Position numbers and translations under genes: made by a program. The notes beneath the pieces are model-generated. The model saw only the letters and a program-made list of their open reading frames with translations, did no database searches and was not told where the DNA came from. Source: Auanema rhodensis (lineage: Eukaryota > Animalia > Nematoda). From it: DNA of 64,000 nt. Location: contig OZ059896.1 in assembly GCA_964057225.1 (NCBI GenBank), positions 11,904,001 to 11,968,000 of the forward strand. The letters run 5' to 3'. Positions 4,514 to 30,580 of this stretch are shown one piece after another; position 1 is the stretch's first letter, and each line of letters opens with the position of its first letter.

Positions 4514-5268
4514 ATGTCAAGAGAAGACAGTTTCGAGAATCCAGATGTACTGGTAGAAGATGTAGGGAATGATGATCCCGTTATTGAGGTGAGTAGCAGG
4601 TTTGACGAAGTAGACCAATTGTTTACAAGTCTGAAAGCCGAAGTTATAAAGTATTCCAAAATCGCATGTAAAACGCGAAAGAATACGTATATAACGCCTG
4701 TAACGGTCACAAGGACCATTGGCATGGTCATGAGGCAAATAAAGGCAAAGCTGTTGGAGCAAACGAATGCTCCCGAAGAGTTTCAGCCTTTGCTAACAGC
4801 GTTTCGCTAGCAGAGCTTTGGGAAGCTTTAGACCAGCGTAAAAGGCTAGAGGATGAACTAGCACTAGCTAAACAACACCAGTGTGTACCTGTTAAACCGC
4901 CCTCGTTACAGACTGCGTTCACTCAGGAACAGGGTGTTGGTTCTTATAGTAGCGGAGTAACACTCGAGCCATCACCGGCTGCAGGTAGGAGTGATTGGGC
5001 TCAACCGCAATATAATAACTATCCTCAGGAGATGAGAAGAGAGCAGAGGTTAAGAGAGGAGCCACCGCCGCCACCAACCCAGGCAGAACCAGAACAGCAA
5101 TCAGGTACGACCACTTCACCTTTTGGACGTATGAGTGAAAATCTGTTCAATAGCTGGGTTACCAGTCAAATGATGCCAAAGTTGAAGCCATATAGTGGCA
5201 CAGGGGAACATACCATGCTCAACCGAACTATTAACCGCGTCACGCGAACGCATGGAGGTAGTAGGTAA
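4514..5268 (+). pseudogene. gag: G1 gag remnant (stops, frameshift, deletion before protease)
   Basis: Broken ORFs 4514-4810 and 5032-5268 (MPKLKPYSG capsid-start-like motif) in the gag position. Confidence 0.65.
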
Positions 5269-8175
5269 AATAGACACGCATATCACGCTCCAGAAAAACG
5301 GTCGTAGCACCGTAGCGACAGTAATCATAGTTAAGGGATTAGGATGTAGGGTGATACTGGGACGCAACATATGGGAGCCATTAGGCCTCAGCATACAAAT
5401 AGAACCTGCAAGCGAACACTCCACGCAATTAGTTCACAGAATAATGCTATTACCGGGAGAGACCAAATTGATAGAAATTAGCCCACCTAGCATAACAAGC
5501 GCCGTATTTTGGGCATCGAACCCATATATGCCTTCAGTTATGGCGTTTGATAGGAATAATTGGAGTATACCGGTAACTAACACAAGTTTAGTACCACTGG
5601 TATGGCCTAAAGGAACCCAGATCGGGAGATGGGTACCTCAAAATGATGTAGAGGTCAACACGGTGAATAGTGTAGCAGTAGATAAAACACTACTAGATAC
5701 AGGGGGAGTGGAACTGCCTTCTACGGAAGAGAAAGAAAAGCTACTTAGCAAGATGATTAACGAATCAAATATCGTAGCAGAGATGAAAACCGAGCTTCGT
5801 TCGATCGTGACTCAGTACGTAGATGTATTCGCGGCCACAGACGCAGAGCTAAGGCCAAGTAACAAATGCATAGCCGCCATTGACACAGGCGAGGCTAGAC
5901 CTGTTAAGCAACGGATGCGAACAGTCCCATTAGGAATACGAAAAGAGTTAGATGACTTACTCACTGGTTTGGAACATCATGGGGTAATACAAAAATCTAG
6001 TTCAGCATGGAGCAGTCCATTGGTTTTAGTAAGAAAGAAGGACGGAGGGTTACGAATGTGTGTTGATTTCCGGGAATTGAACAAGTTGACAAAAGTAGAT
6101 GCATACCCATTACCAAGCATGGAGCAGGCGCTTCAAGCTTTAGCGGGAAAAACTGTATTCTCAACCCTCGATTTGGCTAGCGGATTCTACCAGATCTCCT
6201 TACGGGAGGAAGATAGAAATAAGACGGCGTTCTCAACGAGTAAAGGGTCGTATCAGTTTTGCGTACTTCCGTTCGGGATGATTAATTCCCCAGCCATTTT
6301 TCAACGGATGATGGATAGCATATTGAACCCTACAGGATTAGTGGGTGATGAAGTCCAGGTATATTTGGATGATATCCTAATAGCCACCACAAGTGAACAA
6401 AGGCATATAATAGTTCTAGAACAAATATTTTCCGTTCTGAGAGCAGCCGGATTGAAATTAAAACCACAAAAATGCAAGTTCCTACAGACTCATGTTGAGT
6501 ATTTGGGTTACATAATAGACAAACAAGGTCTTAAAGTAAACCCCGCCAAAACCAAAGCAATAACAGAGTTTTCAAAACCCAAAAATGAAGACGAAGTGAG
6601 AACTTTCGTAGGGATGTGCACATTCTACAGGAAATTTGTGCCAAACTTCGCGAGTAAGGCAAGACCCCTATATGAGTTGACAAAGGATTCCTCAGAGTGG
6701 AAATGGTCCGAGCTAGCAGAGGAATCATTCACAACGTTGAGGAGTAACATAGCGAAATCTCCCATATTAGCTCAACCGAATATAATGCAAGCAAAAAGTG
6801 GGGTTGCCCCATTTATCATCTTTAGTGACGCTTCACGTATAGGTACGGGCGCTGTACTATCACAGAAAGGCGAAGATGGATGTTTACATCCGGTAGCGTT
6901 TGCATCAAAAAGCTTATCGAAACATGAGAAAAACTATACGGTTACAGACCTTGAGGGTCTAGGAGTCATACACGCCGTCAAACGATTTCACCCCATAATA
7001 TATGGTTGCGAGTGTATTGTTCGCACTGACCATCAGCCACTGTTAGCATTATTATGTGGTAAAAACACTTCAGCCCGAGTAATGAGATGGGTACTAGAAT
7101 TAAGAGGCTATCAGATAAAGATAGAATATGTAAAAGGTACCACGAATAAAGTTGCAGACGCACTATCACGTGGCCCTGTTGAAAGCGCAGACAATGTGGA
7201 AGAGGCATTGATTTTGAACGAAACAATCGTAGCACAAGTCACCGAGACACAAAAATGGATTGACGAGCTAGCAGAAGACAGCGAGTATAGCGATACGTGA
7301 CGATGAACAAGTCTTCAGTTACGAGATCATAGAAGATGTTTTATACTTCATCAGTGACAAGGGCAAAGAACAGAAGATAGTGCCACGATCCGTTAGAACA
7401 AACTTGATCGAACAGTATCACGAAGGAAAATGGGCGGCACACTTAGGAATACCTCGAACGATAAAAAAGGATAAAGGAGCATTACATATGGAAAGGTTTA
7501 GAAAAAGACATTCGGGAATATCACAAAAAGTGTATAGAGTGTAGACTCACGAATACAAAAGGTGCGCATGTACCACCGTTGCAACCGATACTAACTACAG
7601 AACCTTTTGAGCTAGTAGCAGTAGACCTATTGGAGTTAGGCAGAACATCGAACGGACACGAATACGTCCTCACTATATTAGACCATTTCTCGAAATGGAT
7701 GGGGGCCTACGCATTGAAAAGTAAATCTGCTCGTGAAGTATGCGAAGTACTAGCTTACGAATGGATCGGCAGATGCGGCTGGTGGCCCAAACGCATATTA
7801 TCAGATCAGGGAACAGAATTTGATAACGCATTAATGAACGAACTAAGTAGACAGTTCAAAATAGAGTTGGTAAAAACAAAAGGATATAATTCACGCATGA
7901 ACGGAGGAGATGAGAGAGCTCAACAGACGTTACAACGAATGATTAAGAAACAGGCAGAGTCGCCAGCAGAATGGGACCGCCTCTTGCCTTTCGTAACATT
8001 TGCATATAATACGTCCTGCCACAAAAGTACCGGATTCACGCCTTATGAGTTAATTTATGGACGAACACCGTCTGAACTACTACAAAGAACCTGCTGTTCA
8101 TCTAACTCAATATGGAGATTACGTAAGCGAATTAAGAGAAGTATTAACATGTGCAAGAAAACTCGCCAAGCTTAA
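5195..8175 (+). pseudogene. pol: G1 pol: protease C-half, RT, RNase H, integrase (frameshifted near 7300, 7470 and 8060)
   Basis: ILGRN, WSSPLVLV, LDLASGFYQ, LPFGM, YLDD, SDAS, TDH, NKVADALSR, then VAVDL/SDQGTEF/NGGDER integrase core. Confidence 0.95.
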
Positions 8176-11130: not shown

Positions 11131-12200
11131 TATCCACTCCTATTTACAAATACTTGACGTTTACCGCTTCGAGTACGCTCTTTTAAAACTTTTTCTATAT
11201 AGTACTGGTTGCTTTTATTAGTAGCCAAGACAAGTTCAGGTTCGTAGAATATTCCCTTTATACGTTCACCATTATAATCTACAAGTTTATACACGGTTGG
11301 GTTTCCGGTTACAACCTCATCAATTGTGAACAGCTCCATTGTATATCCAGACTCGTAGCTTTTTTCAAAAGTACGCCTATTTTTGCTTATGCGAACAGTA
11401 TCACCAATTTTAAAGCGGTTTTTAACAGCTGGTGCATATTCTTCAATGAATATATTTGCTTTAACATCAATGGGCCGCATTTTTTAGGAGCGGTTATAAG
11501 ATTTGTTTATTCCTTCAACCAAATCATCTAGGATATCAATCCAACGATGATTATTCTTGTAATAGAGATATTTCATCATGCGTGTTTTTAAAGTTCTATT
11601 TGCTCGCTCCACCATTGCAGCCTTTTGTGGTGAACTTGTAGATCCGTGCAGTATGGCAAACTTTTGGAATAGTTTTTCACAATGATTATTATAAAACTCT
11701 GTGCCATTATCAGTAATCAACTGAATTGGTATAAAATTCTTGAATAAACTTTCAAATGCACTAGCAACCTCTATACCACCTTTAGTTTTCAAAGGCCTAA
11801 CATATAACATGCGTGTATAAACATCAATCATGGTCAACATGTAAGCATAGCCGTCGTTTAATTTTTTATATTTTTGCATATCAACCAAATCTGCTTGCAC
11901 TATTAGAAATAAACTACATCCTCTAGTCTTTCTAGTCTGCATACGCATTCTGGTTGGTTTATGCCGTGTAAAAGTTTCAGAATCTTGCAAAAAATCATCA
12001 ACTTGTACCTTTGAAATGCCATGTTTTCGTGCTTGCGATAATAAATTCTTGGCTGATGTATATGAAGCTGGATGTTTTATATCGTAATAAATGCTCGCCA
12101 AAATATCATTTCCATAATCTAATGTAGAACTTTTTACGACCTTGGCCTTTCTGTGAGTCTCCTTCTTGTGGTGTGTAATATGATTCGGCGGCAGTATCAA
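11130..12200 (-). pseudogene. Maverick integrase-chromodomain, internal stop at 11484, 3' truncated
   Basis: QADLVDM, MIDVYTR, TDNGTEF, AAMVERANRTLK; KFKIGDTVRIS-like module; same protein as 47460-48577. Confidence 0.92.
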
Positions 12201-12382
12201 AAGTCTTTGACCTTTTACTTTTGAGTGTACGAACCGGTGATGGTGAATATCGAATAACAGCTTTACGATGACGAGGCGTTCTAGGTAATATAGTAGAGTC
12301 CAAGTCTATAACAGCCGGTTCAGCTCTAGTTACAACGTCAACTGAATCATTGTCAGTCGACTCTCTTCTAGTTTGTTTCTTG
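12106..12382 (-). pseudogene. C-terminal part of the Maverick ORF upstream of integrase
   Basis: Matches the C-terminus of 48483-49193; cut at 12382 by the 200-bp array. Confidence 0.85.
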
Positions 12383-13181
12383 GCTGTAGTCACGTTCTGC
12401 CCGGTGAATGAACGTTTTTCTCAAAAATCATCTACTAAAATCTAATAAAAATAGACTGAGGTTGGGTATTCAGATGTGTAGAATCTCAATTTCCTAGTGA
12501 GATTTGGCTAAGACTTCTGCTTTTTCCGGCAAAGGGGTTTATGAGAGAGACCATCCACAAGATTTGTTCACAAAAAAGTTCAGGCTGTAGTCACGTTCTG
12601 CCCGGTGAATGAACGTTTTTCTCAAAAATCATCTACTAAAATCTGATAAAAATAGACTGAGGTTGGGTATTCAGATGTGTAGAATCTCAATTTCCTAGTG
12701 AGATTTGGCTAAGACTTCTGCTTTTTCCGGAAAAGGGGTTTATACCGAGACCATCCACAAGATTTGTTCACAAAAAAGTTCAGGCGGTAGTCACGTTCTG
12801 CCCGGTGAATGAACGTTTTTCTCAAAAATCATCTACTAAAATCTGATAAAAATAGACTGAGTTTGGGTATTCAGATGTGTAGAATCTCAATTTCCTAGTG
12901 AGATTTGGCTAAGACTTCTGCTTTTTCCGGCAAAGGGGTTTATACCGAGACCATCCACAAGATTTGTTCACAAAAAAGTTCAGGCTGTAGTCACGTTCTG
13001 CCCGGTGAATGAACGTTTTTCTCAAAAATCATCTACTAAAATCTAATAAAAATAGACTGAGGTTGGGTATTCAGATGTGTAGAATCTCAATTTCCTAGTG
13101 AGATTTGGCTAGGACTTCTGCTTTTTCCGGAAAAGGGGTTTATGAGAGAGACCATCCACAAGATTTGTTCACAAAAAAGTT
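12382..13181. repeat. Tandem array, 4 x 200-201 bp
   Basis: GGCTGTAGTCACGTTCTGCCCGG... starts at 12382, 12583, 12783 and 12983. Confidence 0.97.
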
Positions 13182-13219
13182 GCGTGGCGACCCGGCTTCG
13201 ATTCCCGGCCGATGCACCA
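13182..13219 (+). pseudogene. 3' half of tRNA-Gly including CCA (an extended minus-strand PBS; not a tRNA gene)
   Basis: GCGTGGCGACCCGGCTTCGATTCCCGGCCGATGCACCA resembles the T-arm and acceptor stem of tRNA-Gly; encoded CCA; no 5' half. Confidence 0.85.
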
Positions 13220-13247
13220 CTTTTTGTCTCTCGAAACTAACAGTGTA

Positions 13248-14621
13248 TTAAATAAACAATAAACGAATAACCCCTAACCCTGCTACTACTGAATCATCAT
13301 AATCTGAACTAACTGCCGAACTTTCTTTGGATACAATAAGTGCTTGCATCTCGTCATTAGACTTGAATACAGCAGAGTCAAAAGCATCTTTGCCACATAC
13401 TCTTATAAGACTAACCCATGGCTCATCTTTATTGACTGCATTGGCTAGCACTCTTTTAATTTCATTAAATCCAGCATGGAAAGGAGCTGTTAGGGTCTCA
13501 AAAACACGGAATTTGTCTAGTCTTCCCAAGGCCCAATTGATGTATTGCTCAGAACACTTATTGGGTATTTCCAGCTCAAATGCATTACACCATTCTCTAA
13601 CTTCATTGGCTAATACAAACAATGTACCAATTTCTTGATTACATCTCTTATTTAGTGCATCTATCCCTTTGAAAATTTCTTCATTCTCAGCAATTTCTTC
13701 TTCGGATAAGGAGTAGTTGAGGTGAATAATGTTACTTACTTCCCTAAGCAATTTATTCTCATTCTCTATCAAAGTATCTTCAACTTTTGTGAACTTCTCC
13801 ATCATTGATTTCTTAATATTCTTCACAACTTCAATTCCCCCTACATCACCTTCAATATCATCTATATTCTCCTCTTGAAAGAAAGTAAAGTGATCGGTAA
13901 GTTCTTTACCTTCTTCTTCACTCATCTTTGAAGGATAAATCGATTTTGTACCATTTACCTCAATCACAGTATACACGCTGTCATCAACCTTAGGCTCGCC
14001 ATCTTGTTTACTAGATGTTTCTGAAACAGGGTCATTATTAATCTCTTTCATATGTCTTTTTGCAAAGTCAAGTCAGTTATCTAGGTCATCATCTCCAAAA
14101 GAGATTAGGCCTGATAAGTTCATTTCATCGCATTTAAACAGCTTCTTAGTATCAAGTTTAGCCATGTGCTTCATGATATTGAGGTATTTGAAAGTTCCCA
14201 TAGAGTTGGCTACTTCACAATTCAAGCTGTAACCAATATCCCAGAGAATGTCTTTACTTATTGGACCTTCTTGGATCTTTCCTTTCTTGTTAGCATATCT
14301 AGAAAATTGCCCAGAAGATACTACATCATTAAAGGTGGATGTACCAAATGGCTTAACAAGATGACCTAGACAGTTATAAATAATATATGCTACTAAGCCA
14401 CTGATCTTGACATTCTCTTTCTCTTGACCAACAACTATAGCTCTAGGCAATAAGCTTATTTCCTTATCTTTAAAGATAATCCCCACAACCACAGAAATCA
14501 GGTCTAACAATTCATCAACATTAGAGATCGTAGTTTTGCCAACATCTTTCCATTTACAATGAGAGTCATTATGTATCCAAAAAACAGAACGTCCCTGCAA
14601 AAGAACGCGGGTAATTAAACC
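13248..14621 (-). pseudogene. Orphan intronless reading frame (~450 codons, one internal TGA), candidate captured/RNA-virus-derived insert
   Basis: ORFs 14073-14600 and 13248-14051 are in the same frame, separated by a stop plus 7 codons; no TE motifs; no in-frame ATG at the 5' end. Confidence 0.55.
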
Positions 14622-14630
14622 AACAAAAAG

Positions 14631-14642
14631 TGGTGCATCGGC
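14631..14642 (+). promoter_or_regulatory. PBS (tRNA-Gly) of AT-rich BEL/Pao family B2
   Basis: ACA-AAAAG-TGGTGCATCGGC about 85 nt upstream of gag. Confidence 0.8.
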
Positions 14643-14725
14643 AAAATAAGTAGAGAACTACAGGCGATTCATAAAATAATTGTTTAATCAGTAAATTAAG
14701 AAAAAAAAAACGAAGAGAGAAAAAG

Positions 14726-16580
14726 ATGAATTCTTCAATAAAATTCAGCAAACAAGGATTTCAAGCTAGAATAGCTTCGAATAGTTACAAACGAAAAGAA
14801 GTCTTAAAAATTTTGAAAAAATACGAAATAAGTACAATTTTAATTTCAAATGAAATTGATGCCATATTAGTATACGTAGAAAATCTCAGAAATTTATGTG
14901 AGCATATAAAAATCATGAGAGCAGATGAAGAAGAAATCATTATAGATGTATTGGTTGAAAAATCACACTTAAACATGGAGAGTGAAGAAATCAAAGAAGA
15001 ACTTGAAGAATTAGAAGATATTATAAATTACCAAAATGACAAGAAAGCAAAAACAAAATTCGAAATGAACCATAAACAAATATTAGAAAATTTACCGCTT
15101 TGCAACAGATCCAGTAACTCACAAATCTCTAAAAATGAGAAAGACACTCAAGTAGAAACGTCGTGTTGGGAATCTTCAGGCTCTGAAATAGATAATAGAT
15201 TAATGAACAGAACGAAAATTTGAAAAAAGAGAAATCCAGAAGTAGACAAAACAATATCATTATTTAATGATAAAATGAAAAATATGATCAAACGTCTAAG
15301 TCATATAGAAATGAAAATGAATGATAATGATGAAAACTCTGAAACAGAAGAGAGAAAAAATAGTATATTTTCCAAACCTAAAATGCAATTAACAAACTTC
15401 AATGGCGAAATAACTGAATATTTAGAATTTATGGGAATCTTTGAAATGTTAGTACATGAAAACAGATACATGAATAATAAGGAAAAATTATTTCATTTAA
15501 AATCATGTATGAAAGGAAAAGCAGAAAATTTACTAAAACCTATCACGTTAACATCAGAAAATTATGCGAAAGCTTTAGAGTTACTAAGAAGAACTTATGA
15601 CAAGCCCGTTCAAAGGAAAAAATTATTAAAAGAGAAATTAAGACAACTGCCTAAAATATATAAAGATATAGAAAGAATGAAAGAATTATTTAATGAGATA
15701 AGAAGTATTCTAACAGGACTTAAAGAACATTCAGACGTAGATAACGAAGAAATAATCGAACTAATAATAGAAAAATTCCCTGAAAATATACAAAGAGAAA
15801 TTTTCAGAATAGAAAGTAACATAAACTCAGAATTAAATCTCAATCAAGTTTTGAATGTGATAGAAACAGCGTTAAAGACAGAAGAATTGGTTTACTCAAA
15901 GAAAGATTATTATCAATCGCAAATAAGAAATCAAATCAATCAATCGACAATGAATTTCTTGACAAGAACAGATAAAACCAATCAAAGAAACTATAAACAT
16001 GATAACTATGAGAAAAGAAGAAATTTGAATACGAGTAATTATCAAAGTTCAAAATATCAGCAAAATCAAATATGTTTGCAGGCAAATAAAAAAAGAAGGA
16101 AGAATATGCGTATACTGTAATATGAATAATCATGAAACAAAATTTTGCCGTAGAACAAGAACAATCGAAGAAAAGAGAAAAATTACCATTCAGAACAAAT
16201 TATGTTGGATTTGTTTTTCAAAAAATCATAATTCTTTTGAGTGTACCGATAATAACTGTAAAAATTGCAATGGCAAGCATAATGAAAGCATTTGCATGAA
16301 AATTCAACATATCAATGAACAAAGAGGACATGGTGAAAACCAAACTTTATATGCTCATGAGGAAAAGTGACATCAGTATGATAATCAAAGATATTCTAAT
16401 GAATCAAATCAACAGAAACCGTATCTAACAGGAGGAAATAAAGAACCAATGGGTCAAAATTTTCGTTGGAGAACCAGTTCAACAGAAAAGAAATAGCAGA
16501 AATAAATTTATTATCAGAAAAAGTGAACCACCTAGAAAATAATAAAACTAACACATTTTTCATAACATTTTTCAACTCTA
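14726..16580 (+). pseudogene. gag: BEL/Pao B2 gag (broken)
   Basis: LTNFNGEITEY..F..F..LVHEN...EKLFHLKSCMKG (DUF1759-like) and CWIC..H..C..C..C..H...C knuckles; stops and frameshifts. Confidence 0.9.
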
Positions 16581-17330
16581 AATATAATCTTTCTTTTGGT
16601 AGTTGAGGAAAATTAGGGTATTTATGAGGTCTGTTATTAATTTTTTTGCATTTCAAGCAATCGTGAATTACCATATTTATACAAGTTTTTAATTTTACGA
16701 TAAAAAATTCCTTTCTTACTATACCCATCCAAGTTTCCCTGTTTGCATGTAACGAACTTTCATGCATGTAATTCAGAAGTAGTTTTGTAAATAATTTCTT
16801 TCCAAATAGTAGTATTGGGTATGAATTTTTATCTTTATCGGAGTGTCCCATACGGCCCCTCACTCTTAAAATTCCATATTCATCTTTAATGATATCTAGT
16901 TGCTTGAATTTTTTCTTTTCCAGGTTTTTAATATTCTGGTTTTGATGAATTTTTATGAGAAATTTTTGAATTGTTTTATTTTTCGTCATTGAATCTTTTT
17001 CCTCGAATTTATCAAACATACTTTCTTTACACTTATTTGAGTTTTTCTTTATTTTAGTGACAAATGTCATTATTTGCCTAATTATATCAATTAATTTTGG
17101 GTATGTTGAAAATTTTCTTGCTAAAAAATCTAAATCTTCATTTTCCGTTTGATTTATTTCGGATTTTATCAATAAATTGACTATTTTTTGCTGCGGTTCT
17201 TCGCAATGTTTTTCAATCACTTCTTCAAGCGATTTAATATTTTTGTTTCGGTCTATTTCATTTTTATACCATTGAGGACCTTTAATCCATTCCTTGTAAA
17301 CTGAATCTTCAACTTCTGAACCTCTTGTAG
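16580..17330 (-). pseudogene. pol: BEL/Pao B2 pol, connection and integrase zinc-finger part (antisense to its gag)
   Basis: PTRG..WIKGP, GILRVRGR, H...H...CLKC, PQLPKER. Confidence 0.88.
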
Positions 17331-17335
17331 GTAAA

Positions 17336-17868
17336 TGTGCTGAAGCACTCTCATCCCGTGATAATAGTGTTCCTCCTTAGTTTAAGTTCAATTGTACTTC
17401 TTTATTGTCCTCTCTTTGTACTATCCATTATCCTCAACTATCTAATCGATAATCCTGTAAGTTGTCACCAACGGCCGATTTGCCGATGAATCACCTATCG
17501 CCCTTTGCCATCTGATCCATTAGGCAAGATCTTAGGCGCGATAGCCGTCGCCCACTTGCAAGGGGGATGAATCACATAGGATTTAGACCCCTCCTCTCGC
17601 TTTCTACAATTAATACATTATCTATCACTTCCGGGGACCTAGTATATAAACCCGCAATAATTCTTCTAAATCATGGCTCAATATTATTCTGCCACCGCTA
17701 TCATCTTCCCGTCAATTTATTTCTGTTTTACTCGTATTGTATTCGTATCACCGATAATAAACTCTTCTCTTGTACTTGCGTCTATTGCCTATTACTTGGA
17801 CTAATATTCCACTACCACTGAACCACAAATGCCCGTTATTCGCTCTCCAACTAGAGGACAAAACGACA
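17336..17868 (+). repeat. B1 5' LTR
   Basis: TGTGCTGAAG...AAACGACA; TATATAAA near 17644; two differences from the 3' LTR seen by eye. Confidence 0.97.
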
Positions 17869-19200
17869 TGGTGCATCAAGCCGAGTCCAACGAAGAAACT
17901 CGCGCCGAACAATGGAACAGCAGCTGCTCATTATTACTCGCTAAGCTCAAGGACAACGACGCAAGGAGGAAATCATATGCGGTACGTCAAGTTACTAATA
18001 CCTCCAACAAAACCCCAAGCATGATTGACACCCGTGAAAGGGAGATTTCAAACATCAATGGGGACATCCTCGCCATCAACAAACTGATGGACGAGATGAA
18101 ACACATCCCAACCGACCTACGCCCCGAGGACCAAAGTCGGATCACGAAGAACGAAGAAACTCTGCGGAAACACATCTCTACCCTACTGTCATACAGTAAC
18201 GACATACAAGAACAAGTCAACTACCTGAAGGGTCTCAACCACACTGAGAACAGCCCTGACCCAACACACACAGACAGTTCACAGCCCTCTGAGCACCACC
18301 TCATTGGAACTGCTGAACTCACACACGCCACACAACCTCGAAGCTGGGAAACATATCGATCACGGCCAACACTCAAACCTGTCGATATCCCACGCTTCGA
18401 TGGCAACGTGAAAAGCTGGAAAAACTTTTGGTGCTTGTTCCACACACTCATACACTCATCGAACATGCCCACCATAGAAAAGTTTAACTACCTTCGCCAG
18501 TCATTAACAGGAGAAGCAGCTTCACAAATAGCTTCATTCCCAACGGATGAAGACTACTACTTCAGCGCAGTACATCACCTGCAGGATCTATATGATGATA
18601 ACGACAACATCACACAACATCTCATGCTGGAATTTCTCCAGATACAAGCGAGAACATCCAACCAGCATGACCTCCTCTCCATGATGGACAAGATCGCAGG
18701 CATTTTTCGCCAAACTGAAGGAAACAGGAACGCCGAACAAGAAACTACCAGGGAACCTTCTCCAAGAGATCTACAAATCATTCCCCTCGGGAAAAACACC
18801 CGACATCAGAGACCTAGTAGACATCACAAGGCGACATATCCGATGCCAAAACAAGGTGAAAATTTTCGCAGCAGATCGGTTCGAGAAACCAATCACACGA
18901 GTCTACAACTCACCACCAGGGAACACCTACAATTCCCAACGCAACAAACCAGAAGCTAAAAAACTAGCAAAAACATCCAGTTGCATCTTCTGCCAGAAAC
19001 CTCACGCCCCATGGGACTGTGACACAACAAAGTCGAGGAAGGAGCGTCTAACCATTCTCAACCAGGAAAAGAGATGCATCAACTGTCTCCGCAAAACACA
19101 CAACACGGAGTCATGTCCAAGCAAACGAACATGCTCCAAATGCGGAGAAAAACACATCGACATCTTATGCGCTAATAAAAAGAAGACGACCAAAGTCAAC
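17868..19200 (+). pseudogene. gag: B1 gag (frameshift/deletion near 18720-18860)
   Basis: DIPRFDG..W..FW..F...IH...EKFNYLRQSLTGEA; CIFC..H/CINC..H/CSKC..H knuckles. Confidence 0.9.
17869..17880 (+). promoter_or_regulatory. B1 PBS (tRNA-Gly type)
   Basis: TGGTGCATC immediately after the LTR. Confidence 0.8.
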
Positions 19201-22200
19201 TTAATTGAGAGCACACCCTACAATGACGAGGAAACCGAAGAACACACGGTTCAATTTTCCTCCCAGTTCTCTACCAATCAATTCAAAAGCGCCCTCCTTC
19301 CAATAGGAGAAATCAAGATAATGACGAATGGAAAATTTTCCACAATCCCAGCCATCTTGGACTCTGGATCGGACACATCTTTCATCGAAGAAGAACTTGC
19401 CAAAGAACTTCAACTACCCGTTATAGAATCTAAACGCGTAAAAATCAAGACTTTCGGCAACACAAAAAGCGTTGAACACCTCACAAAGGTGAAAGCAACA
19501 ATCAAAGGAACAGTCTCCAACATCACTGCACACCTTTGGACAAAAAAGACCTTGACGGGTCCCATCAAAACAGTCCGAATTCCAAAATCAGACAACTCCA
19601 CCTTCAAATTAAATCAAGAAACCTACGTCAATCCACGCATACTCATAGGCTCCGATTTAATGTGGCAAGCTCTGACAGCCATTATACCAATCTCTGACGA
19701 CCACATACAAGTCAAGACACAATTTGGAGACTTCATAACAGGAAAAGCAAGCGACCAACCATCCATCAACGCCTTCTCAGTTATAACTGGAAACACCTCT
19801 ATCCCGATAGACACATGGAACAAAAACTTCATCGAGGAGCAGCAAGAATTTACGGGAACCGAACAAGAAGAAAAACAAGCACGAGATAAACTAGTATTGG
19901 AACAATTCCAATCCACCATCCAAAAAAGAGACGATGGTTATTACGTCTCCTTCCCATGGAAAGACAACATCAATCTTCTCCCCGACAACAAATCACTTGC
20001 TCACAGACGCCTCATAAGTCTAGTCGTAAAATTATCTCAACAACCAGATTCACTAGCAGCATACGACAAAATCATTCAAGAACAACTAGACAATGGAATA
20101 ATCGAACCAGCAGAAGAACCATACCCTGACGCTCAAACGATACACTACATTGCTCATCAAGCAGTTCTGACCCCACAAAAGGAAACAACCAAACTAAGGA
20201 TAGTATACGACGCTTCCGGACACTACCAGAACAGACCCAGTCTGAACGACGTCATCCATCAAGGACCACTAATCCTACCATCACTAGTAGGAATGATTTT
20301 ACGCTTCCGCTGCGGGAAAATGGCACTGATAGCAGACGTAAAGAAAGCATTTCTTCAAAAAAGACTCCACGAGTCAGAACGTGACGCTACAAGATTCTTT
20401 TGGCTGAGAGATATCTCCAAACCAATGAGCACCGAAAATACAAGAACCCTACGCTTCTGTAGAGTTCCCTTTGGAATCAATGCCTCGCCATTTCTCCTCG
20501 CAGCCACAATTCGTCATCATCTGGAACAAAGAAGCAACGAAAACTTCCTAGCCCACCAAATTAAAGAGAACCTTTACGTGGACAACCTATTACTTGCCAC
20601 AAACTCAGAAGAAGACCTCAAACTGGGATACCGAAAACTTCAACTTCAACAAAACTCAGCAACGAGCCCTACCAGAAGATCCGAATCAGCAGTACCACTT
20701 AGTTACCTGTACAGATTCTAGCGGATCAGCCCTAGGATTCTGCACACACCTCCTGGCAGCCACATCACGCATACCTACCTTGATCTTCGCTAAATCCAAG
20801 CTACACTCAAAGAACTCCAACATCACCATCCCGAAAGCAGAAATACAAAATAAATACAGAAATACCGACACATTACGAAGAAGCCGAACTGAACCTTCTC
20901 CATCTGCATCAACACAACCTACTCGTACGTCTTACAGCAGCACAACGAAACGACTTAAGACCACTGTTGAAAGATCATCTTTGGCACAGCCGCGGACGAA
21001 TGCAGAATAGTGAACTAGATGAGAGTGCAAAACTTCCTATCATCGTCTTACCCAAAACAAGGACAGCCACCTTAATTATCGAACACGTCCACAACCAATT
21101 TCACAAAAGCACGTCACACACCATGGCCGAAGTTCGACAGAAATTCTGGATACCACAACTTCGCTCACAAACCATCTCAGTCATACGAAGATGCGTAGAG
21201 TGCCAACGAATGAACAACCGACCATTCACGTACCCCCCCTCTGGCGACATACCCAGCAGAAGACTCAATCGAAGCCGACCATTCCAACACATAGGCCTTG
21301 ATTACTTCGGACCGCTGACGGTAAAGGACAAACCTCACAAAGTATGGGGTTGCATCTATACCTGCACAGTCACACGCCTACTACACTTAGAAGTTATAGA
21401 AGACCTTACCACAAAAGCATTTCTTAACTGTCTAAGGAAGATATGGGCACGTAGAGGATATCCGGAAAGCATCACTTGCGATAACGCCACCACATTCGAA
21501 CTAGGACAGAAAGTGGCGAACAGACTGTTCAGCATCGCCAACACGACACAAACAGGTGACAGCCATAAGATAAAATGGCACAACATAACACCTTACGCCC
21601 CCTGGCAAGGAGGATTCTACGAACGCCTTATCCGATCAGTAAAAGACTCTCTTCACAAAACCATGAAGAACATACCAACAAGCGAAGAACTGTCAATCAC
21701 CTTAGCTGAATGTGAAGCAACACTCAACACTCGCCCACTCACATACATCGGATCCGACACAGGAACAGATGAAATAATCAGACCATGTGACTTTATTCAC
21801 AAAGACTTGGACCTTAACATTTCATTCCACTCGGACGATGACGACGAAGAATACCTCGACAACCCTGCCTTACAAACAAGAGCAGACACAGAAAAAGCCA
21901 TCCATTCCTCCAGACAACGCACAAACAAATTCTGGGAGTTATGGATCGAACTCTACCTCAAAGAGTTAAGAGAACACCACAAGAACAACATCTCGGTGAA
22001 GAAAGCTGGTTCCAATCAACAGCCAAGAATCGACCAATACGTACTTATCAACGACAGTCCGATACCTCGGTACAAATGGCCGATTGGAAAAATCACACAT
22101 ATCTCACCAGACAAGAACGGACAGACCAGAGAAGTCACGCTTCTTTCAGAATCAGGCAGAGAACTCAAACGACCAGTGAACCTTCTACATCCGCTGGAAC

Positions 22201-22310
22201 TCTCAGACGACGACATTCCTGAAAGACTACGAAACACTAATCCTTCGAGAGATGTCCCACCAATAAGGCAGTCTAATCCAAGGAACGTACCTAGATTATG
22301 GTACGGAGAA
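19200..22310 (+). pseudogene. pol: B1 pol: protease, RT, partial RNase H region, integrase (deletions near 20640 and 20860)
   Basis: LDSGS, KLRIVYDAS, RVPFG, YVDN, IGLDYFGP, CDNA, PWQGGFYERL, LNTRPL. Confidence 0.93.
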
Positions 22311-24330
22311 CAAAGAACAAACCTATTCACCTTTCTATCAATATTCTCAATACTTCTACCCATCATCTCTGCCACACCAACAATATCTTGCAACTACCAA
22401 GGAGTTCAAATTCAAGGAATCTCGACAAACAATCAACAAGTATGCATCCACAACACATGCTATAACAACAGCCACGATGGAAACCTTATATTTCCCCCAG
22501 CGGACATCCTAACCAACTACGACGTAAGCTGGACCTTCCAACACAATTCCAGAATTCATCACATGATGATCACCCAGCGGTACATTTCTGCTCCACTGTC
22601 ACATGCACCTTCTGCACTGCTACACTTTTCAATCCATCTTGCTGGCCATGGACATCAATGCTACTTCTCACATTCCTTACATGCATGCTCACAGCCTTAT
22701 GCTACGGCATTCTATACACACCATGGGTCATAGGAAAACCAATCCGGCTTTGGATACGATTATGCACCACCATCATAATGACCATAATCAAGACGATCCG
22801 ACACACACGTCAACCGAGGCCGCACAAATCAGCCATACCACTCCTAGCTCTGATGAGTTTGATACAAGTCACCTTCTCATGCCAAGAACTCGCGATCACA
22901 TCCTCCGAACAGTCCACTTGCATCCAAGAGAAATGCCACATACAAACCACGCATAATCTCAACATCAGTCCATACACTCAAGAAGCCTGCCTCACATTAT
23001 CAAACAATCAAGACAATATCTCTTTCTTGAGAATACAGTGGATCAAAACCAACTACAAGTGTGAGACTCGGTCCCTTTACTTCACAAGAGAATCAAAGAC
23101 TCACGTACAAGACAGCAAAAGATGCCCACACACTGGATCATGCCAAGAAGAAAAATGCAGCAACATCACCCCAAACTCAACTGTCAGCGAACTTCACATA
23201 GCTAACCAGTACCCAGGAACAACACACTGCACAGAATCCTGTGGTGGCATAGGATGCGGATGTTTTTACCCTTCATCAGGATGTCTTTTCTACAGGACCT
23301 ACCAGAAGCCGACTGATACCTCGATATATGAAGTATACGACTGCAACTCTTGGACACCTACAACGGACCTCAGCCTAACATACCGAAACGGATCAACCAC
23401 CATCTCCAAAAACGTCACTCTATACTCTGACGTTCCGAAGCACATATATCCATTCACGCTAACTATTACAAGTCTCTCACCGCCAGTCATACCTGCGATG
23501 CAATACAAATTCATCCGCAACTTTACAAGAACAGCTATATGGAATCAACAACCCATGCTCTCATGCCCGAGCAGAAGAGACGCTATAAACATGAACTGTA
23601 CCGCCACACCCACCTGCGTTTGCACACCGGCAGAAGACCAGGTCAACTGCCAGTGCCACGAAACATCTATCACCTCAGCCTTTACCAACGTACAATCAGC
23701 TATTCCAATGCTAACACCCTCATACATGATCATGAACGAGGAAAGAAACTTACGGCTGCAACCGAGGAGCCCAAGCAAGTATCACATGTACTTCACCTCA
23801 ACCAACTCTGGCAGCTATACAATGTGGTGAATCCGCATTCATGACACAATGCAGTCCACAAGGAACAACCAACTCCATCCAGCTGCCTATCACCTCAGCC
23901 TCACCTAGGATCACATGCACATACACCTGCAGAACACAAGAAAACACATTCCTCCTCTCAGGAATGCTGTACTACGTCAACACACTTCAAGACCTACGCT
24001 CTCATTACATACTCGGGAATCACTCGTCTCTCCAAGAAACAGCCTTCACCTTTTCTTGGCTCGACATTACTCACTTTTACAACATCTATCAGGAATGGTA
24101 CAAAGCATTAGCAACCTGTCTACTCATTGCCATAATCGCTTTTACCTTTTCCTATTACATCATTACAACATACGCTACCAGACTAGCACTAGGCACCGCC
24201 CACTACATGGCTGCCGCAACATGTTACATCTTCCTCATTCCCCTCCGCGTCTTTATCATTTTTTGGCGCCAGCTCCTTCTCCTAAAGTCAAGGAAAACTC
24301 ACATCCTAGTAGTATTCATTCTATTCACTA
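22310..24330 (+). pseudogene. env: B1 env: phlebovirus-like Gn/Gc class II fusion glycoprotein, in frame with integrase, frameshifted in this copy
   Basis: Signal peptide after IN; KRCPHTGSC, CTESCGGIGCGCFYPSSGCLFYR, TM segments; deletion near 23755 relative to the copy at 53913-55750. Confidence 0.88.
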
Positions 24331-25082
24331 TGTCACTCACCAAAACTAGAGCCTGCGAAATCAACCTAGTCTTGCAAAGATCACAAGAAAGATGCGACTC
24401 GTTTCTGAAGCTCACAAGAGAGAAACGGATTGAATGCTTGAAGGAACTCACCCAGCACATGGACCAATCACTTAGGGATTTTTACAAAACTGAGGCAAGT
24501 GAACTCTCTGACAAATCCAATCTCATCAACAGCGCCGCCACTGCCTTAAAAAACTTCATAAGACTCAAAGATTTCCTCAACACCGCAAGAACACACCACG
24601 TGTTCCAAAATGAGCAAGACAAGCTCAAACCTTTTGGAAACAAGAAAAGACTAAACGAGTTGATGAAGAGTATCCAAAGGGAACACATCCCAGCGATAAA
24701 CGGAGACAAAATGCCGTACAACTCCTCTACCATCAAAAGGGACGGAGAAGCGCCAGGATGTCCTCAACCCAAGGGAAACATCATCGTCGTAGAAGCGCAG
24801 CCGGAGCTCAAAGAAATATTGGAAGAACTAAAACAGATGAGATCGGAGAACAAAAGGATGACCTCAGTGCTAATCGAACAGCTCGACCAACAAAAGAAAT
24901 TCGACTCGCTAAAGAAAGAACTGAAAGAGATCAAGGAACTACTAGCGAAAGGGATCCAAGCCAAGCCTAGAGTGTCTAAGGAAACGCAGACTACCGGTAG
25001 GATCAAGACTAGAAAAGAAATGGAACAAGAAATTCTACCCACTAAGAGGAACAAGACTCAGGCGGCGATCATCACCATATAG
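24330..25082 (+). CDS. B1 post-env accessory coiled-coil-like protein, unknown function
   Basis: C-terminal ~250 aa of ORF 23841-25082; conserved in the copy at 52557-53356. Confidence 0.6.
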   Translation: MSLTKTRACEINLVLQRSQERCDSFLKLTREKRIECLKELTQHMDQSLRDFYKTEASELSDKSNLINSAATALKNFIRLKDFLNTARTHHVFQNEQDKLKPFGNKKRLNELMKSIQREHIPAINGDKMPYNSSTIKRDGEAPGCPQPKGNIIVVEAQPELKEILEELKQMRSENKRMTSVLIEQLDQQKKFDSLKKELKEIKELLAKGIQAKPRVSKETQTTGRIKTRKEMEQEILPTKRNKTQAAIITI

Positions 25083-25106
25083 ATGTTCTCTTCTCGACGG
25101 CCGGAG

Positions 25107-25639
25107 TGTGCTGAAGCACTCTCATCCCGTGATAATAGTGTTCCTCCTTAGTTTAAGTTCAATTGTACTTCTTTATTGTCCTCTCTTTGTACTATCCATT
25201 ATCCTCAACTATCTAATCGATAATCCTGTAAGTTGTCACCAACGGCCGATTTGCCGATGAATCACCTATCGCCCTTTGCCATCTGATCCATTAGGCAAGA
25301 TCTTAGGCGCGATAGCCGTCGCCCACTTGCAAGGGGGATGAATCACATAGGATTTAGACCCCTCCTCTCGCTTTCTACAATTAATACATTATCTATCACT
25401 TCCGGGGACCTAGTATATAAACCCGCAATAATTCTTCTAAATCATGTCTCAATATTATTCTGCCACCGCTATCATCTTCCCGTCAATTTATTTCTGTTTT
25501 ACTCGTATTGTATTCGTATCACCGATAATAAACTCTTCTCTTGTACTCGCGTCTATTGCCTATTACTTGGACTAATATTCCACTACCACTGAACCACAAA
25601 TGCCCGTTATTCGCTCTCCAACTAGAGGACAAAACGACA
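25107..25639 (+). repeat. B1 3' LTR
   Basis: Preceded by GGCCGGAG, followed by TSD GTAAA. Confidence 0.97.
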
Positions 25640-25644: not shown

Positions 25645-27446
25645 TCAGCTGGATTTGATTTTGTATTCACATAGAAAAACTGAATTGTTGTCTTCATTTT
25701 TTCTATTTCTCTCACAATTTCGTTTATTTTATTCAGTCTATTACGAATATATATCTTTTTAGTTGGATTTTTGTGTAACCAACATAGTACTACTTGTGAA
25801 TCAGTTAAAATTTTTATTTTTTCTAATTTTATATTCATTTCGCTGACGTTATCTTTCAACATTTTCATACCAAATAGTAAAGCTGTTAGTTCTTTCATTG
25901 ATATGGTTCCTTCAATCATTGTTGAAGATTTAGAGCAAAGAAACTCAATTTTTTCTGTTTTTCCAGCTTCATTTACATATGCTAAATACGCAACACATGC
26001 TATAACATCTTTAGATGCATCTGTGAATAATAAATATTCAAATTTTCCATTTTTCTCATTTATCTCATTTATATCTTTCATTAATGACCTGTTAACATCA
26101 ACTTTAGCATTTTCTAACTTTGTATATAATTTTTTCCATATTATTTGTTGCTGTTCTGGTATTTCTATGTCCCAGTCAATTTTTAGTTCCCATATTTCTT
26201 TTAGAAATAACCTAGCTTTGACGGTTAAAGGCTGAGTTAGACCTAATGGGTCGAAGATTGAATTAATGAAACTGAGGATAGTTCGTTTCGTTATTTTTTC
26301 TTCTTTCCATATAGGAATTTTTATTTCCAATTTGTCATTTTCTCCATCATAGTTCATTCCGAGAATTTTAAAGTTTGAATCTTTTATTCTATCGATTTCG
26401 GGAATTTTCATTCTTTCTACGGTTACGTTTGTATAAAATTTTCTGACATTCATGCCAATCTTTGAAAACAAATTTTTTACTTCACTATACTATAATACTG
26501 TAATATTTGATTTTCATTTTCTACTTTTAACATTATGTTATCTACATAAATGTTACTTAAAATATTCTTGTTTAAATTACTTTTTTCTGTTTTTAAAAAA
26601 AATATAATGCTGGCTGCGAGTAGAAATGGTAAACTATTTACCCCAAAAGGTATTTTTGTGAATCTCAACTTCATAATATTACTTTTCTGTGTTCCTTTGT
26701 TTATATCTTTGACCCATAAAATTCTGGTTAGATCCCTATGACTTTCGTCTAACTCTATTTGGTAAAACGCTTTTTCAATGTCTCCTATTAAGAAGTTTTT
26801 GCTTAACCTGAGTCTTACCAGCATGCCTGCTAAATTTGGCATTATTCCTTCGCCTTGATATAGTATATCGTTTAAAGATAGCTCATTTTTCTTTTTGCTT
26901 GATGCGTTTAATACAATTCTTAGTTTTGTAGTTGAGCTTGATAGTTTTAAAACGTAATGGTGGGGTATATAATATGTAAAAAATGGATGATTACTCCGAG
27001 GAGATTCTTCTAAAATTCCTGTCCTCAGTTGTTCCTGTATGGTTTCATTATATTTTTCAAATATATCCTTTTTTCCTCTCAAAGTGTTCAAAATTCCATT
27101 TAGACAGCCAATACTCTTTCCGAAATTATCGTCAATTGACTGTATATATTGTTTGACAGGAAACTTCACTTTAATTCTTCCATTTTAAACCCGAACGTTT
27201 TCATAAAAGTGCTGCCATGCCATTTTATTTTCATAGTTTCTAATTTTTTATTTTGTTATTTTTGAGTTTTCGTCTTTTAATTTCAAGCCTGTTAAAAAGC
27301 ACTGAATTTCAGGGTTTTCAATAACTGTTTGGTCAGTATTTTGACTTTGGGTACGTTGAGCGATTATTGGATGAATGATCGTTGGAACTATTATAATATC
27401 TTTCCCAATTTTAATTGAATTGAACTCATTTATCATGAATTCCCAA
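25645..27446 (-). pseudogene. pol: BEL/Pao B2 pol: RT and RNase H region
   Basis: TTKLRIVLNAS, DIEKAF, KIPFG, YVDN, FDPLG, FTDAS, TDSQ, NPADL. Confidence 0.92.
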
Positions 27447-27447
27447 A

Positions 27448-28200
27448 ACCATGATTAATGTTTATACACGCATGTTATATGTTAGGCCTTTGAAAACTAA
27501 AGGTGGTATAGAGGTTGCTAGTGCATTTGAAAGTTTATTCAAGAATTTTATACCAATTCAGTTGATTACTGATAATGGCACAGAGTTTTATAATAATCAT
27601 TGTGAAAAACTATTCAAAAAGTTTGCCATACTGCACGGATCTACAAGTTCACCACAAAAGGCTGCAATGGTGGAGCGAGCAAATAGAACTTTAAAAACAC
27701 GCATGATGAAATATCTCTATTACAAGAATAATCATCGTTGGATTGATATCCTAGATGATTTGGTTGAAGGAATAAACAAATCTTATAACCGCTCCTAAAA
27801 AATGCGGCCCATTGATGTTAAAGCAAATATATTCATTGAAGAATATGCACCAGCTGTTAAAAACCGCTTTAAAATTGGTGATACTGTTCGCATAAGCAAA
27901 AATAGGCGTACTTTTGAAAAAAGCTACGAGTCTGGATATACAATGGAGCTGTTCACAATTGATGAGGTTGTAACCGGAAACCCAACCGTGTATAAACTTG
28001 TAGATTATAATGGTGAACGTATAAAGGGAATATTCTACGAACCTGAACTTGTCTTGGCTACTAATAAAAGCAACCAGTACTATATAGAAAAAGTTTTAAA
28101 AGAGCGTACTCGAAGCGGTAAACGTCAAGTATTTGTAAAATGGAGTGGATATCCCGACAACTTTAATGAATGGATAGATGCAGAAAATTTAAATGTATAA
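27448..28200 (+). pseudogene. Maverick integrase-chromodomain, 5' truncated, same internal stop as the 11-kb copy
   Basis: TDNGTEF, VERANRTLK, intact chromodomain YYIEKVLK..VKWSGYPDNFNEWI. Confidence 0.92.
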
Positions 28201-29705
28201 TTTTTCAATGTTATAAACAATTGTAATTATAATAAATGATTTATTTGATATATCGCATAATGTAACAATAAAAAACCAGCAAAATACAAACAACAATTCA
28301 ACCTGCAAAAAAAAAATAATTTAGACTTTTCAAATTTTCAAATTCTTACCAGTTGGTTGATCATTCGTCCTCAATTGATGAGCCATTGATGGATATTCGC
28401 AAGAGCTGGAAAAAAAAATGTTACGGCTGAGAATATAGAAATGCCACATAACAAAACAAGAATAAAACGCCAATTGTACTATTTGTGCTTGTTGTAGTCA
28501 AAATGAAGGATCAAAGCGGATAAACATGTTCAGGTTGAGTGCTTCTGGACTTAGTTTAAAGTAGAATACATTCTGCTTATAACCAAAAGTCTTTACAGTA
28601 GCCTCATCTGCATATATAACAATATAGCCCATATTGTTCAACAATTGCTTGCACGTCATGGTGTTATAAGAGCGCATCTAAAAATGATAAAATTGAAAAT
28701 AAATAAATATGCAAGCTTACATTAATAGAAACCTTTCATTCCTTCCTCTACACTTTATACAGAGGCTGAAACAGTGATACTCGTCTATAACCTGCAATGA
28801 TTCCCTACAAGTTTTGCAGAGACAAATTGGTCTCATTAATACACTCCTTGGTGGAGTGCTCTCTCTCAGAATCTTCATCTGCTTTATTGGTGAATCTAAA
28901 TTAAAGATTAAAAAAATACAAGTTAAGGTTCATACCAAAACTTGTAAAATTTGGTGCTGGTGTGGGTGGTCGTGGTACTTCAGGTTCAGGCGATTTGCGC
29001 ACAACATTTGTCACATCAGCAAGTACAGCACGCTTCATTTCCGCTAAAGATCCAACTTTCTAAAATATAAGGCAAACTTGCAGAAAGGAGCAGTCTATGG
29101 CGATTGGCAAAGAGTGGCAGGAGATGGTGAAACGTCGGATCCTCGGATAGTTGGCAGAGCTGAAATGTAAATGTAGCAAAATTGCCAACCTTTTATACAA
29201 AGATTTTTGTAAAGTACAACCCATTGTGTTACAATCAAGTTTGCTGATGAAATTCTTTAATTAATTAGATTTTACAGCATATTTATGCAGATATACTCAT
29301 CTCGTCGACAGTTGCCAGCAGTTGGCGCACTCTGAACCTGTAAACAATCTGCATATTAATTAGTTTTTACATCTCTTTAAACTTTATTGTTTACCGTTTG
29401 TGCCATAAACAACAGCCATCTCTGTAAAACATTTAGGCTTTTTAAACTTTGCTTAATAGCTCATTTATTATTCATAGTATACTTTTACACCCATATTGTA
29501 GCACAAAACATATGACTGCCAACGTTTTATATGTAAAAATATTTCATTCTTGAATATTTAATAATGATTATATTACGAAACTAAAACTTTTGAAATGTTA
29601 AAATGTTTATACTATATTTAAACCCCCACAGTGCAGTTATTAGTGTTTATTAACCCTCGATATGCGTGGCGTAGAGGTCAGCGCAACTGTTTGTTAATCT
29701 TATTG
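28200..29705 (-). mobile_element. Inverted copy of the Maverick segment ~45925-47460, including a deleted D-box gene copy (ATG at 29038)
   Basis: Near-identical reverse complement. Confidence 0.9.
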
Positions 29706-30171
29706 TAAAACATTTGTTCATTGAAGTATAATAAATAGCTGTATAGCATATGTATCAAGATTTCTAATATTCTTAAATTACGTGGAAAGAAGAGTATATA
29801 GAATTAGTTTTAGTGTGTATATTACTAATATTCTAATACACTAACTCAATGGAACACAGATCGAAGATTAATTCGATAAGATAGTTGAAACAGTTGTGTT
29901 GATTCCAATGGAACACATATCGAAGGTTAATTCGATAAGATTGTTGAAACAAGTGCGCTGACCACAACAATACATGCGTATTTATCAAAAACGGATTGGC
30001 AAATGCCACTGTTGACAGCTGTAATATGATACAATGTTGAGTGTTGGCAACATTGTTACGTGACAATAAAACAACTGACTGTTCTTGCAATGAAGTGTAA
30101 TATGAATGTGTAAAATGAAATAAGGATAACTACCTCTTAGAGTTTGCATAATTTTGTTCTAATAAGATACA

Positions 30172-30580
30172 ATGGCTGCTAACAGGTTATGTTTTTTCCT
30201 CGCTTTTTTTTATTAAAATATTTATTTTCAGTTATAAGCGTGTATGTGAAGAGTTGGGTTTTGATTATGAGGAAATTTATCAACTCAGGTAATTTAACAA
30301 TATTTTCAAAATATACATTTTTTTTAGTAAGCGCATAAAGCTTACCGAGAGTGGTGGGTTTGAGCTCTGTGAGCCCGCAATAACCACTTCCAATAGTGGT
30401 CCCTCGTCATCAAGGGCTATTGAAGTTATAACCTTGGATGACAGCGATAATGAGTAAACTATCGTATAATGAAAAAGCATGAAATTTTTTGTTTTCAGAA
30501 AATGGAATCCCGAGATGCCATCAACTAGTGGAGAACAATTAAGAGGCGGTTCATCCTTCAACGATATTTGTCAAATAAAG
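30172..30580 (+). CDS. Small multi-exon Maverick-associated gene (copies with ATG at 34339, 38503, 43437; diverged paralogs at 3163, 41062, 44733); 3' end uncertain
   Basis: GT..AG introns give an open splice product MAANSYKRVCEELGFDYEEIYQLSKRIKLTESGGFELCEP...IEVITLDDSDNEKWNPEMPSTSGEQLRGGSSFNDICQIK. Confidence 0.6.

Follow-up and report, generated by a model that had tools for sequence, protein, structure and literature searches.

By what route did an intronless frame of about 450 codons, whose protein has no recognized relative, come to lie between tRNA-Gly primer sequences in a cluster of nematode transposable elements, and what was its donor? The frame is found in a window (the whole stretch of 64,000 nucleotides of Auanema rhodensis DNA analyzed here) and adjoins a decayed BEL/Pao element, referred to as B2. 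The evidence tips just in favor of reading the whole locus, i.e., the orphan frame together with 33 nt of LTR and 34 nt of tRNA-Gly, as a frozen product of aberrant BEL/Pao reverse transcription; for the capture step by itself, an LTR-mediated uptake of RNA through a template switch inside U5, the case is a good deal stronger and we consider it likely.

Organization of the Locus

The window is crowded with transposable elements (TEs): a gypsy-type pol occupies 5186-7300, and Maverick-type pieces (integrase, polymerase), a Tc1-type transposase and more than one BEL/Pao element, several in all, lie elsewhere in it. B2 has the features by which BEL/Pao elements (Belpaoviridae) are recognized, namely a DUF1759 gag, a Pao peptidase/RNase H, a reverse transcriptase (RT) and a tRNA primer site that follows a CA-ending LTR. 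The features of the locus are listed below with the evidence for each in parentheses (X with a number denotes a public DNA run).

12382-13181, no strand assigned: four copies of a 200-nt tandem repeat of very high genome copy number, the DNA joined to the tRNA piece (depth in X3)
13182-13185, plus: 4-nt filler GCGT between tandem repeat and tRNA piece (sequence)
13186-13219, plus: 34 nt of the 3′ half of tRNA-Gly(GCC), T-loop and terminal CCA (contig matches)
13220-13224, minus: AAAAG spacer between LTR end and primer site (identical to 14626-14630)
13225-13257, minus: last 33 nt of a B2-family LTR (U5 end, ...GAGACA), holding the terminal stop of the frame at 13248-13250 (contigs)
13258-13266, minus: switch zone, the last 7 nt of the LTR piece (AATAAAC) over again, then GA (comparison with the contig end behind 13257)
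13267-14622, minus: foreign frame without introns, about 450 codons long, poor in CpG and open at both ends (searches and composition)
14073-14075, minus: single internal TGA (present in all four covering runs, X3, X5, X7 and X8, with 0 differences)
14623-14642, plus: ACA, AAAAG and the 12-nt tRNA-Gly primer site of B2 (contigs bridge the junction)
14643-16587, plus: B2 leader and decayed BEL/Pao gag, with a stop at 15221-15223 and frameshifts (DUF1759, E = 4.5e-20)
16588-17335, minus: B2 pol, integrase end, inverted relative to gag, boundary approximate (Integrase_H2C2, E = 4.8e-05)
25645-27447, minus: B2 pol, RT and RNase H part, inverted (Peptidase_A17, E = 7.5e-37; RVT_1, E = 6.8e-06)

The gag-pol inversion point of B2 is bridged by an X3 contig, and the two pol pieces are separated by the insertion of B1, a complete BEL element (17336-25639) with 533-nt LTRs that differ at 2 positions, a target duplication GTAAA and a phlebovirus-G2-like envelope (E = 4.6e-84), of a kind that the available text of PMC9094657 describes for nematode belpaoviruses. 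Past 17336, contigs of X3, X5 and X7 continue for 418, 286 and 115 letters, respectively, that do not fit the LTR of B1, and the one from X3 includes the gag-pol inversion of this locus; B1 thus seems younger than the capture and not fixed, and it may be a recent polymorphic insertion.

Several other arrangements were observed in the window. The breakpoints of B2 at 16587-16588 and 27447-27448 have apparently cost it the protease core. Further B1 copies are present at about 53381-58552, and behind the B1 envelope (23736-25082) there is a 448-codon frame with no Pfam match, the last 200 residues of which look like an extra coiled-coil product. A Maverick-type integrase-chromodomain element lies in three pieces (11131-12382, 27448-29707, and 45055-49196); the Maverick-type pieces that flank the block formed by B2 and the insert face each other and match at 99.4% over 704 nt, the arrangement that a fold-back would leave. 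The stretch 29707-44724 consists of tandem units of about 4.2-4.9 kb in which fragments of protein-primed DNA polymerase lie together with 167-nt pieces of satellite; an intact-looking Tc1-type transposase frame (39605-40630) interrupts one of these units.

The Orphan Frame

The minus-strand frame 14657-13248 has one internal TGA, which confirms the description, given in an earlier note on this DNA, of an intronless frame of about 450 codons with one stop; in 2000 simulated sequences the best of six frames held at least 6 stops. The foreign part is taken as 13267-14622 (1.36 kb), or as 13258-14622 if the slipped repeat of the switch zone is counted as foreign, and it is open at both ends because the terminal stop lies in the LTR piece. 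It has the same sense as the LTR piece fused to it, faces away from gag, and shows neither intron nor poly(A). The region downstream of the TGA is acidic and then, in a low-confidence model, predicted to form long helices. Reading of the TGA as tryptophan was considered and is unlikely, with 6 TGG against 1 TGA; a match to SNORD57 (E = 0.24) was set aside as chance.

Nine public DNA runs (three studies), six of which may be the source data of the window itself, contain 90-100% of the insert's words, and a tenth contains 18%; no RNA run appears among those listed as carrying it. Contigs that carry the insert have single-copy depth and, in the pieces listed from X3, X5, X7, and X8, 0 differences. 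The junction on the right, from insert to B2 gag, is bridged without differences by an X5 contig (13228-16587) and an X8 contig (14435-14847); X7 contigs give no cover at this point. Because these two contigs span it, the joint of insert to gag is real, and the insert, which DNA contigs fuse to gag and nine runs carry, is integrated in host DNA and inherited. On the left, none of the contigs listed from X3, X5, X7, X8, and X10 bridges the junction of satellite and tRNA. An assembly artefact, or a contaminant joined to repeats, could take its support from that unbridged side; set against the sharing of the insert's words by nine runs (with the same reservation on six of them) and its difference-free fusion to gag in X5 and X8, such an origin is very improbable.

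At 80% likeness, no second copy of the insert occurs among the contigs listed in X3, X5, X7, and X10, and the window holds none either; as the insert is also single-copy, no young parent gene is visible. The locus is now a non-coding fossil, and any present role would be that of a putative source of antisense small RNA.

The Borders of the Insert

The claim that a perfect 20-nt inverted repeat encloses the frame is correct (arms at 13208-13227, minus, and 14623-14642, plus; 100% over 20 nt); the longest separate-arm inverted repeat in 1000 dinucleotide-model simulations of the region measured 16 nt. Its dissection into ACA, spacer and Gly primer site holds for the right arm, with its 12-nt site; on the left, the match to the tRNA runs 34 nt and not 12. 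The ACA at 14623 is either a remnant of an LTR end or microhomology. All that remains of LTR sequence at the locus is 33 nt plus 3 nt, head to head, with no LTR pair in direct orientation and no target-site duplication. The notion of two outward-facing primer sites in the place of two 5′ LTRs is half right: the left site has no gag behind it in the window, only the array of four 200-nt repeats and a truncated Maverick-type integrase element. It looks like a primer-bearing cDNA end and not simply like the start of a second element.

Contigs from other copies of the LTR end delimit the retroelement part of the left border. One X3 contig matches 13208-13253 with 0 differences and beyond that reads as the complement of AAAATAAGTA, which is the leader behind the right-hand primer site; hence the letters beyond the left ACA are the LTR end of B2 itself. 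In an X7 contig the piece 13225-13257 borders on unrelated DNA at 13225, and the end of the LTR is thereby set at that position. Immediately after 13257, contigs of X3, X5, and X7 depart from the window sequence and continue as GATTTATT..., the LTR interior. Comparison with other copies of this LTR end thus defines the left stub as the last 33 nt of the LTR. An X5 joint covering 13208-16534 was rejected as a representative of this locus; it belongs to a related element whose LTR end differs at 3 positions.

The joints of retroelement and foreign frame therefore fall at 13257-13266 and 14622-14623; the former carries the 7-nt slipped repeat, the latter ACA. The repeat in the switch zone is like that left by polymerase slippage before a template jump. 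Contigs cross the U5-insert junction with only 30 LTR letters (39 counting the slipped repeat), the matching limit being 31.

The tRNA piece includes CCA, and the deepest tRNA contig in X5 matches 13186-13216 only, with 1 difference. Upstream of 13186, loose contig ends in X3, X5, X7, and X10 run into the GCC anticodon loop, and the tRNA contigs read ...CCACGCG; to judge from these letters, the filler GCGT is possibly three further tRNA bases plus one additional T. A search of Rfam with the tRNA piece returned a weak match to the tRNA clan alone (E = 0.45). The 200-nt repeat on the far side of the filler reaches a summed depth of up to 1.7 million, against about 200 for single-copy sequence (X3). 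Its unit ends in ACAAAAAAGT, nearly the LTR-end/spacer motif ACAAAAAGT of B2, exactly where the tRNA piece is attached.

Read on the plus strand, the left border runs tRNA-CCA, spacer, U5 end and foreign antisense, an order that fits a tRNA-primed minus-strand cDNA changing template after 38-47 nt. The tRNA piece is probably a copied primer and not an inherited long site. Under the alternative, the same capture would have taken place, and the left end would be a long primer site inherited from a second B2-family element that lost its 5′ LTR to the insert and, later, its body to deletion; this is the two-element picture of the earlier note. Matches to the tRNA of 31-39 nt ending in CCA-CTTTT do adjoin LTR-like ends in other contigs (four in X5 and one in X3), and the X3 contig among them, which matches 13189-13236 with 3 differences, joins a long tRNA match to a B2-like end. 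Such long matches may therefore be inherited in these LTR families instead of freshly copied; heavy rearrangement of the locus also suits this alternative. Against this, the two B2-type primer sites that are readable with their leader both stop at 12 nt (14631-14642 in the window and one X3 contig), and neither leader nor gag follows the left site; we rate inheritance as the less likely origin, with perhaps one chance in a few. A search for the left-site pattern in metagenome contigs gave no match.

Another LTR-like end (X3, X5, and X10; matching 13186-13224) carries a spacer of 4 nt and, over about 45-50 nt, the complement of tRNA-Gly, far enough to reach the anticodon loop. A match of this length suggests that BEL families of this kind may use 3′ tRNA halves as primers or may read through beyond the usual stop. 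The literature search retrieved nothing on how long the primer sites of nematode BEL elements are, and the available portions of PMC6086898, PMC7084138, and PMC13195028 do not say.

Composition, Searches and the Donor

The insert has a CpG observed/expected ratio of 0.31-0.34 and is the lowest stretch of the window; the ratio is at least 0.60 in 245 of 245 other equal-length window stretches with GC ≥ 0.28, and 0.66-1.00 in TE frames (15/15). Among polymerase loci of segmented negative-strand viruses, fetched by motif and assigned to probable families by motif and length, the medians are 0.29 (phenuivirid-like, with 60 of 74 at or under 0.40), 0.33 (peribunya/tospo-like, n = 79), 0.26 (nairo-like, n = 18), and 0.27 (arena-like, n = 28); in non-segmented groups, the medians are 0.45 (22 paramyxo-like loci), 0.62 (25 loci), 0.52 (79), and 0.52 (53). 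In a codon-aware version of the test, the insert is again the lowest of 14 frames (0.36), with B2 gag (0.50) and a B2 RT piece (0.46) close. The insert carries a virus-like nucleotide signature, which is suggestive and not diagnostic, the baselines being window stretches, TE frames and viral loci fetched by motif, with host genes outside them; within that comparison, composition points to a segmented negative-strand virus as donor.

Identity searches returned no relative of the protein. There was no match among PDB sequences, none in a collection of 5.8 billion proteins (up to 2285 aa) searched at near, longer, and shorter lengths, none among viral and metagenome contigs, and none at E up to 0.001 among 1.84 billion representative proteins; this last absence would be unusual for a cellular gene. 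A Pfam scan found no domain, of a TE or otherwise, in agreement with the earlier statement that the frame bears no TE motif. Single-sequence AlphaFold2 models had mean pLDDT values of 37.0 and 34.8, and Foldseek, run on models of such low confidence (pLDDT 35-37) that they are too poor to inform, gave nothing at E = 0.001.

Viral profiles were built from contigs fetched by motif. The earlier note had suggested the C-terminus of a negative-strand virus L protein, and this part of its proposal found no support: on a 36-member profile (36 of 106 motif-bearing phenuivirid-like loci were long enough) the frame scored −5.8 bits, a value that 195 of 200 shuffles matched or exceeded. With unbiased realignment the test recovered 11 of 18 left-out members at E < 0.001 and placed 4 of 18 below zero, so that a test of moderate power lowers the L C-terminus idea. 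Nothing rose above controls for the N-terminal and middle parts of phenuivirid-like L (profile of 27 loci); the peribunya/tospo-like, nairo-like, arena-like, and other bunya-like profiles likewise gave no score above shuffled and reversed controls, and paramyxo-like N and rhabdo-like N, P, and L gave none clearly above them. Two scores that exceeded all 60 shuffles were discarded, since the reversed protein scored 9.5 against 0.6 bits on the arena-like N-terminal profile and 3.4 against 3.8 bits on the “other” C-terminal profile. A paramyxovirus nucleoprotein motif aligned to residues 122-145 was rejected as well, at only 0.9 bits.

A viral donor is plausible and, on the whole, somewhat favored. 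The earlier attribution to a virus finds agreement in composition, in the single-copy state and in the absent parent, and none in viral homology, which was not found; because no search ties the protein to any virus, it is composition that bears the attribution. Divergent negative-strand viruses are numerous in nematodes according to the available text of PMC11445058 and PMC12770441, which makes a donor without a sequenced relative plausible. Detectable homology to a viral protein, the defining mark of an endogenous viral element, was sought by sequence, profile, and fold and was not found, and the locus cannot therefore be filed as one.

Three other donors were weighed. The first is a non-segmented negative-strand virus, with the insert as an N-P-like junction: a nucleoprotein-like gene would truly end at the TGA, and an ATG eight codons further on would open a phosphoprotein-like gene with an acidic, coiled-coil product. 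The sole coding-strand run of five A, noticed post hoc, sits between that TGA and that ATG; the downstream part is acidic and then helical in the low-confidence prediction described above; and the frame scored 5.8 bits on a profile of 71 rhabdovirus-like second genes, a score equaled by 4 of 100 shuffles and, as one of many tests, not significant. The upstream part matches no nucleoprotein profile (22 paramyxovirus-like, 67 rhabdovirus-like, and 20 others), CpG in non-segmented groups is higher (medians 0.45-0.62), and the adjacent B2 gag has stops too, so that one stop is to be expected from decay; we hold this reading to be improbable.

The second donor is a fast-evolving host mRNA or an RNA of a partner organism, retrocopied by the LTR element, with the parent lost, diverged, or absent from the runs. 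Microsimilarity-guided capture of host mRNA fragments by LTR elements is known in many animals, as the available text of PMC5131818 reports; the frame has no intron and is truncated on either side, and the baselines of the CpG comparison come from window stretches, TE frames and viral loci. What lowers this explanation to a small probability, about that of the N-P-like junction, is the lack of a second copy at 80% likeness among the contigs listed (X3, X5, X7, and X10) and of any protein relative in 1.84 billion representatives; in addition, the fused LTR end still shows no difference from another copy, a sign that the event may be young, yet no parent copy is listed.

The third is a gene carried as cargo by some DNA element or DNA virus that is not recognised as such; rearrangement at the DNA level would have brought it in, and the primer-site borders would be mere microhomology. 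Maverick-type integrase, protein-primed polymerase fragments, and several inversions do lie nearby, but the Maverick-type fragments have CpG ratios of 0.79-0.99 and the insert has no second copy in the window; both borders, moreover, lie within 42 nt of a primer site, a position that DNA-level rearrangement does not predict. The chances of this origin are slim.

Proposed Course of the Capture

The proposal of the earlier note that BEL reverse transcription captured a foreign RNA near the primer site is thus supported, and the switch point can be placed 33-42 nt into U5. In such an event, tRNA-Gly would have primed on B2 RNA, and 38 nt would have been copied before a 7-nt slip; the polymerase would then have moved onto a co-packaged, coding-sense foreign RNA, most likely that of a negative-strand virus, and copied 1.36 kb of it. 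Reverse transcription of a primer tRNA usually stops at 18 nt. Here, the primer would not have been removed, and the tRNA would have been copied to 34 nt, beyond that stop. The far end could have been joined, via ACA or ACAAAAAG microhomology, to the primer site and gag of B2 in opposite polarity, and this head-to-head joint may have come from a further template switch or from later rearrangement; B2 pol is likewise inverted. Because the left side has no intact LTR end, fixation would probably have been by break repair beside the satellite and not by integrase. The head-to-head polarity needs an extra step that the model does not reconstruct, and this counts against it. It is a rather doubtful further step to see in the insert the only known trace of a nematode RNA-virus lineage that has diverged too far to match any of the 1.84 billion proteins, and in the locus a whole capture intermediate (tRNA primer copied well beyond its stop, 33 nt of U5, slip, and foreign cDNA) preserved in the germ line beside the satellite, its fixation independent of integrase.

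Significance and Comparison With Known Systems

Searches for endogenous viral elements normally depend on homology, which leaves the fossils of unknown viruses invisible. At this locus, the joints (primer tRNA, U5 end, and slipped repeat) mark a captured RNA without homology and show the switch to lie within the first 40 nt of minus-strand synthesis. Given a viral donor, the insert would add a lineage to a thinly sampled nematode virome and supply a probe for live virus in transcriptomes; if that lineage is indeed unknown and the primer was copied, primer-tagged ends would become a homology-free handle on unrecognizable viral fossils in nematode genomes. If the donor was not viral, the locus would be an unusually clear natural record of BEL elements picking up foreign RNA.

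In yeast, strong-stop cDNA of Ty1 with its primer tRNA is captured at double-strand breaks, in induced laboratory settings and with element sequence only. The present locus resembles these events in that a primer-bearing minus-strand cDNA appears to have been fixed in the genome without intact LTR ends, and differs from them in being a shared germ-line locus with 1.36 kb of foreign coding RNA. BEL elements themselves once acquired a phlebovirus-like envelope, according to the available text of PMC9094657.

The closest nematode parallel is eBxnv-1, a nodavirus RdRp inside a Bel/Pao element of Bursaphelenchus xylophilus, for which copy-choice during reverse transcription has been proposed (PMC5177903). 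To the extent that the accessible part of that source describes it, eBxnv-1 is, like the insert studied here, a single-copy intronless foreign frame associated with a Bel/Pao element and free of differences between carriers. However, eBxnv-1 holds a recognizable RdRp between two direct LTRs and is transcribed, whereas the protein of the present locus is unrecognized and its frame replaces almost the whole LTR, faces away from gag, and has a tRNA copy at one end.

Fusion of non-retroviral RNA to LTR-element sequence is also documented for the LCMV-IAP recombinant cDNA (PMC3205384) and for virus-LTR hybrids and endogenous viral elements of Aedes (PMC6797480; 10.1101/127498), the latter sharing the orientation of neighboring LTR elements (10.1101/127498). 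Judged by the available text of these sources, the likeness extends to a foreign RNA fused to an element in the sense of the LTR, within a TE-dense cluster; the difference is that those inserts were recognized by homology to known viruses and have small RNAs shown for them, whereas for the insert at this locus no viral homology was found. The LTR retrocopies of host mRNA (PMC5131818, available text) share with the locus a partial intronless frame and joints that show a short stretch of similarity or a few added letters. Those retrocopies replace the internal ORF between two LTRs and have a parent gene; in contrast, the switch here lies inside U5, no LTR pair is present, and no parent is seen. 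The literature search, which was conducted mostly outside subscription journals, yielded no description of a primer-bearing capture in a nematode. The capture of non-retroviral RNA by LTR elements is thus an already known process, and what sets this locus apart from the cases compared is the switch within U5, the tRNA-bearing end, and the absent LTR pair.
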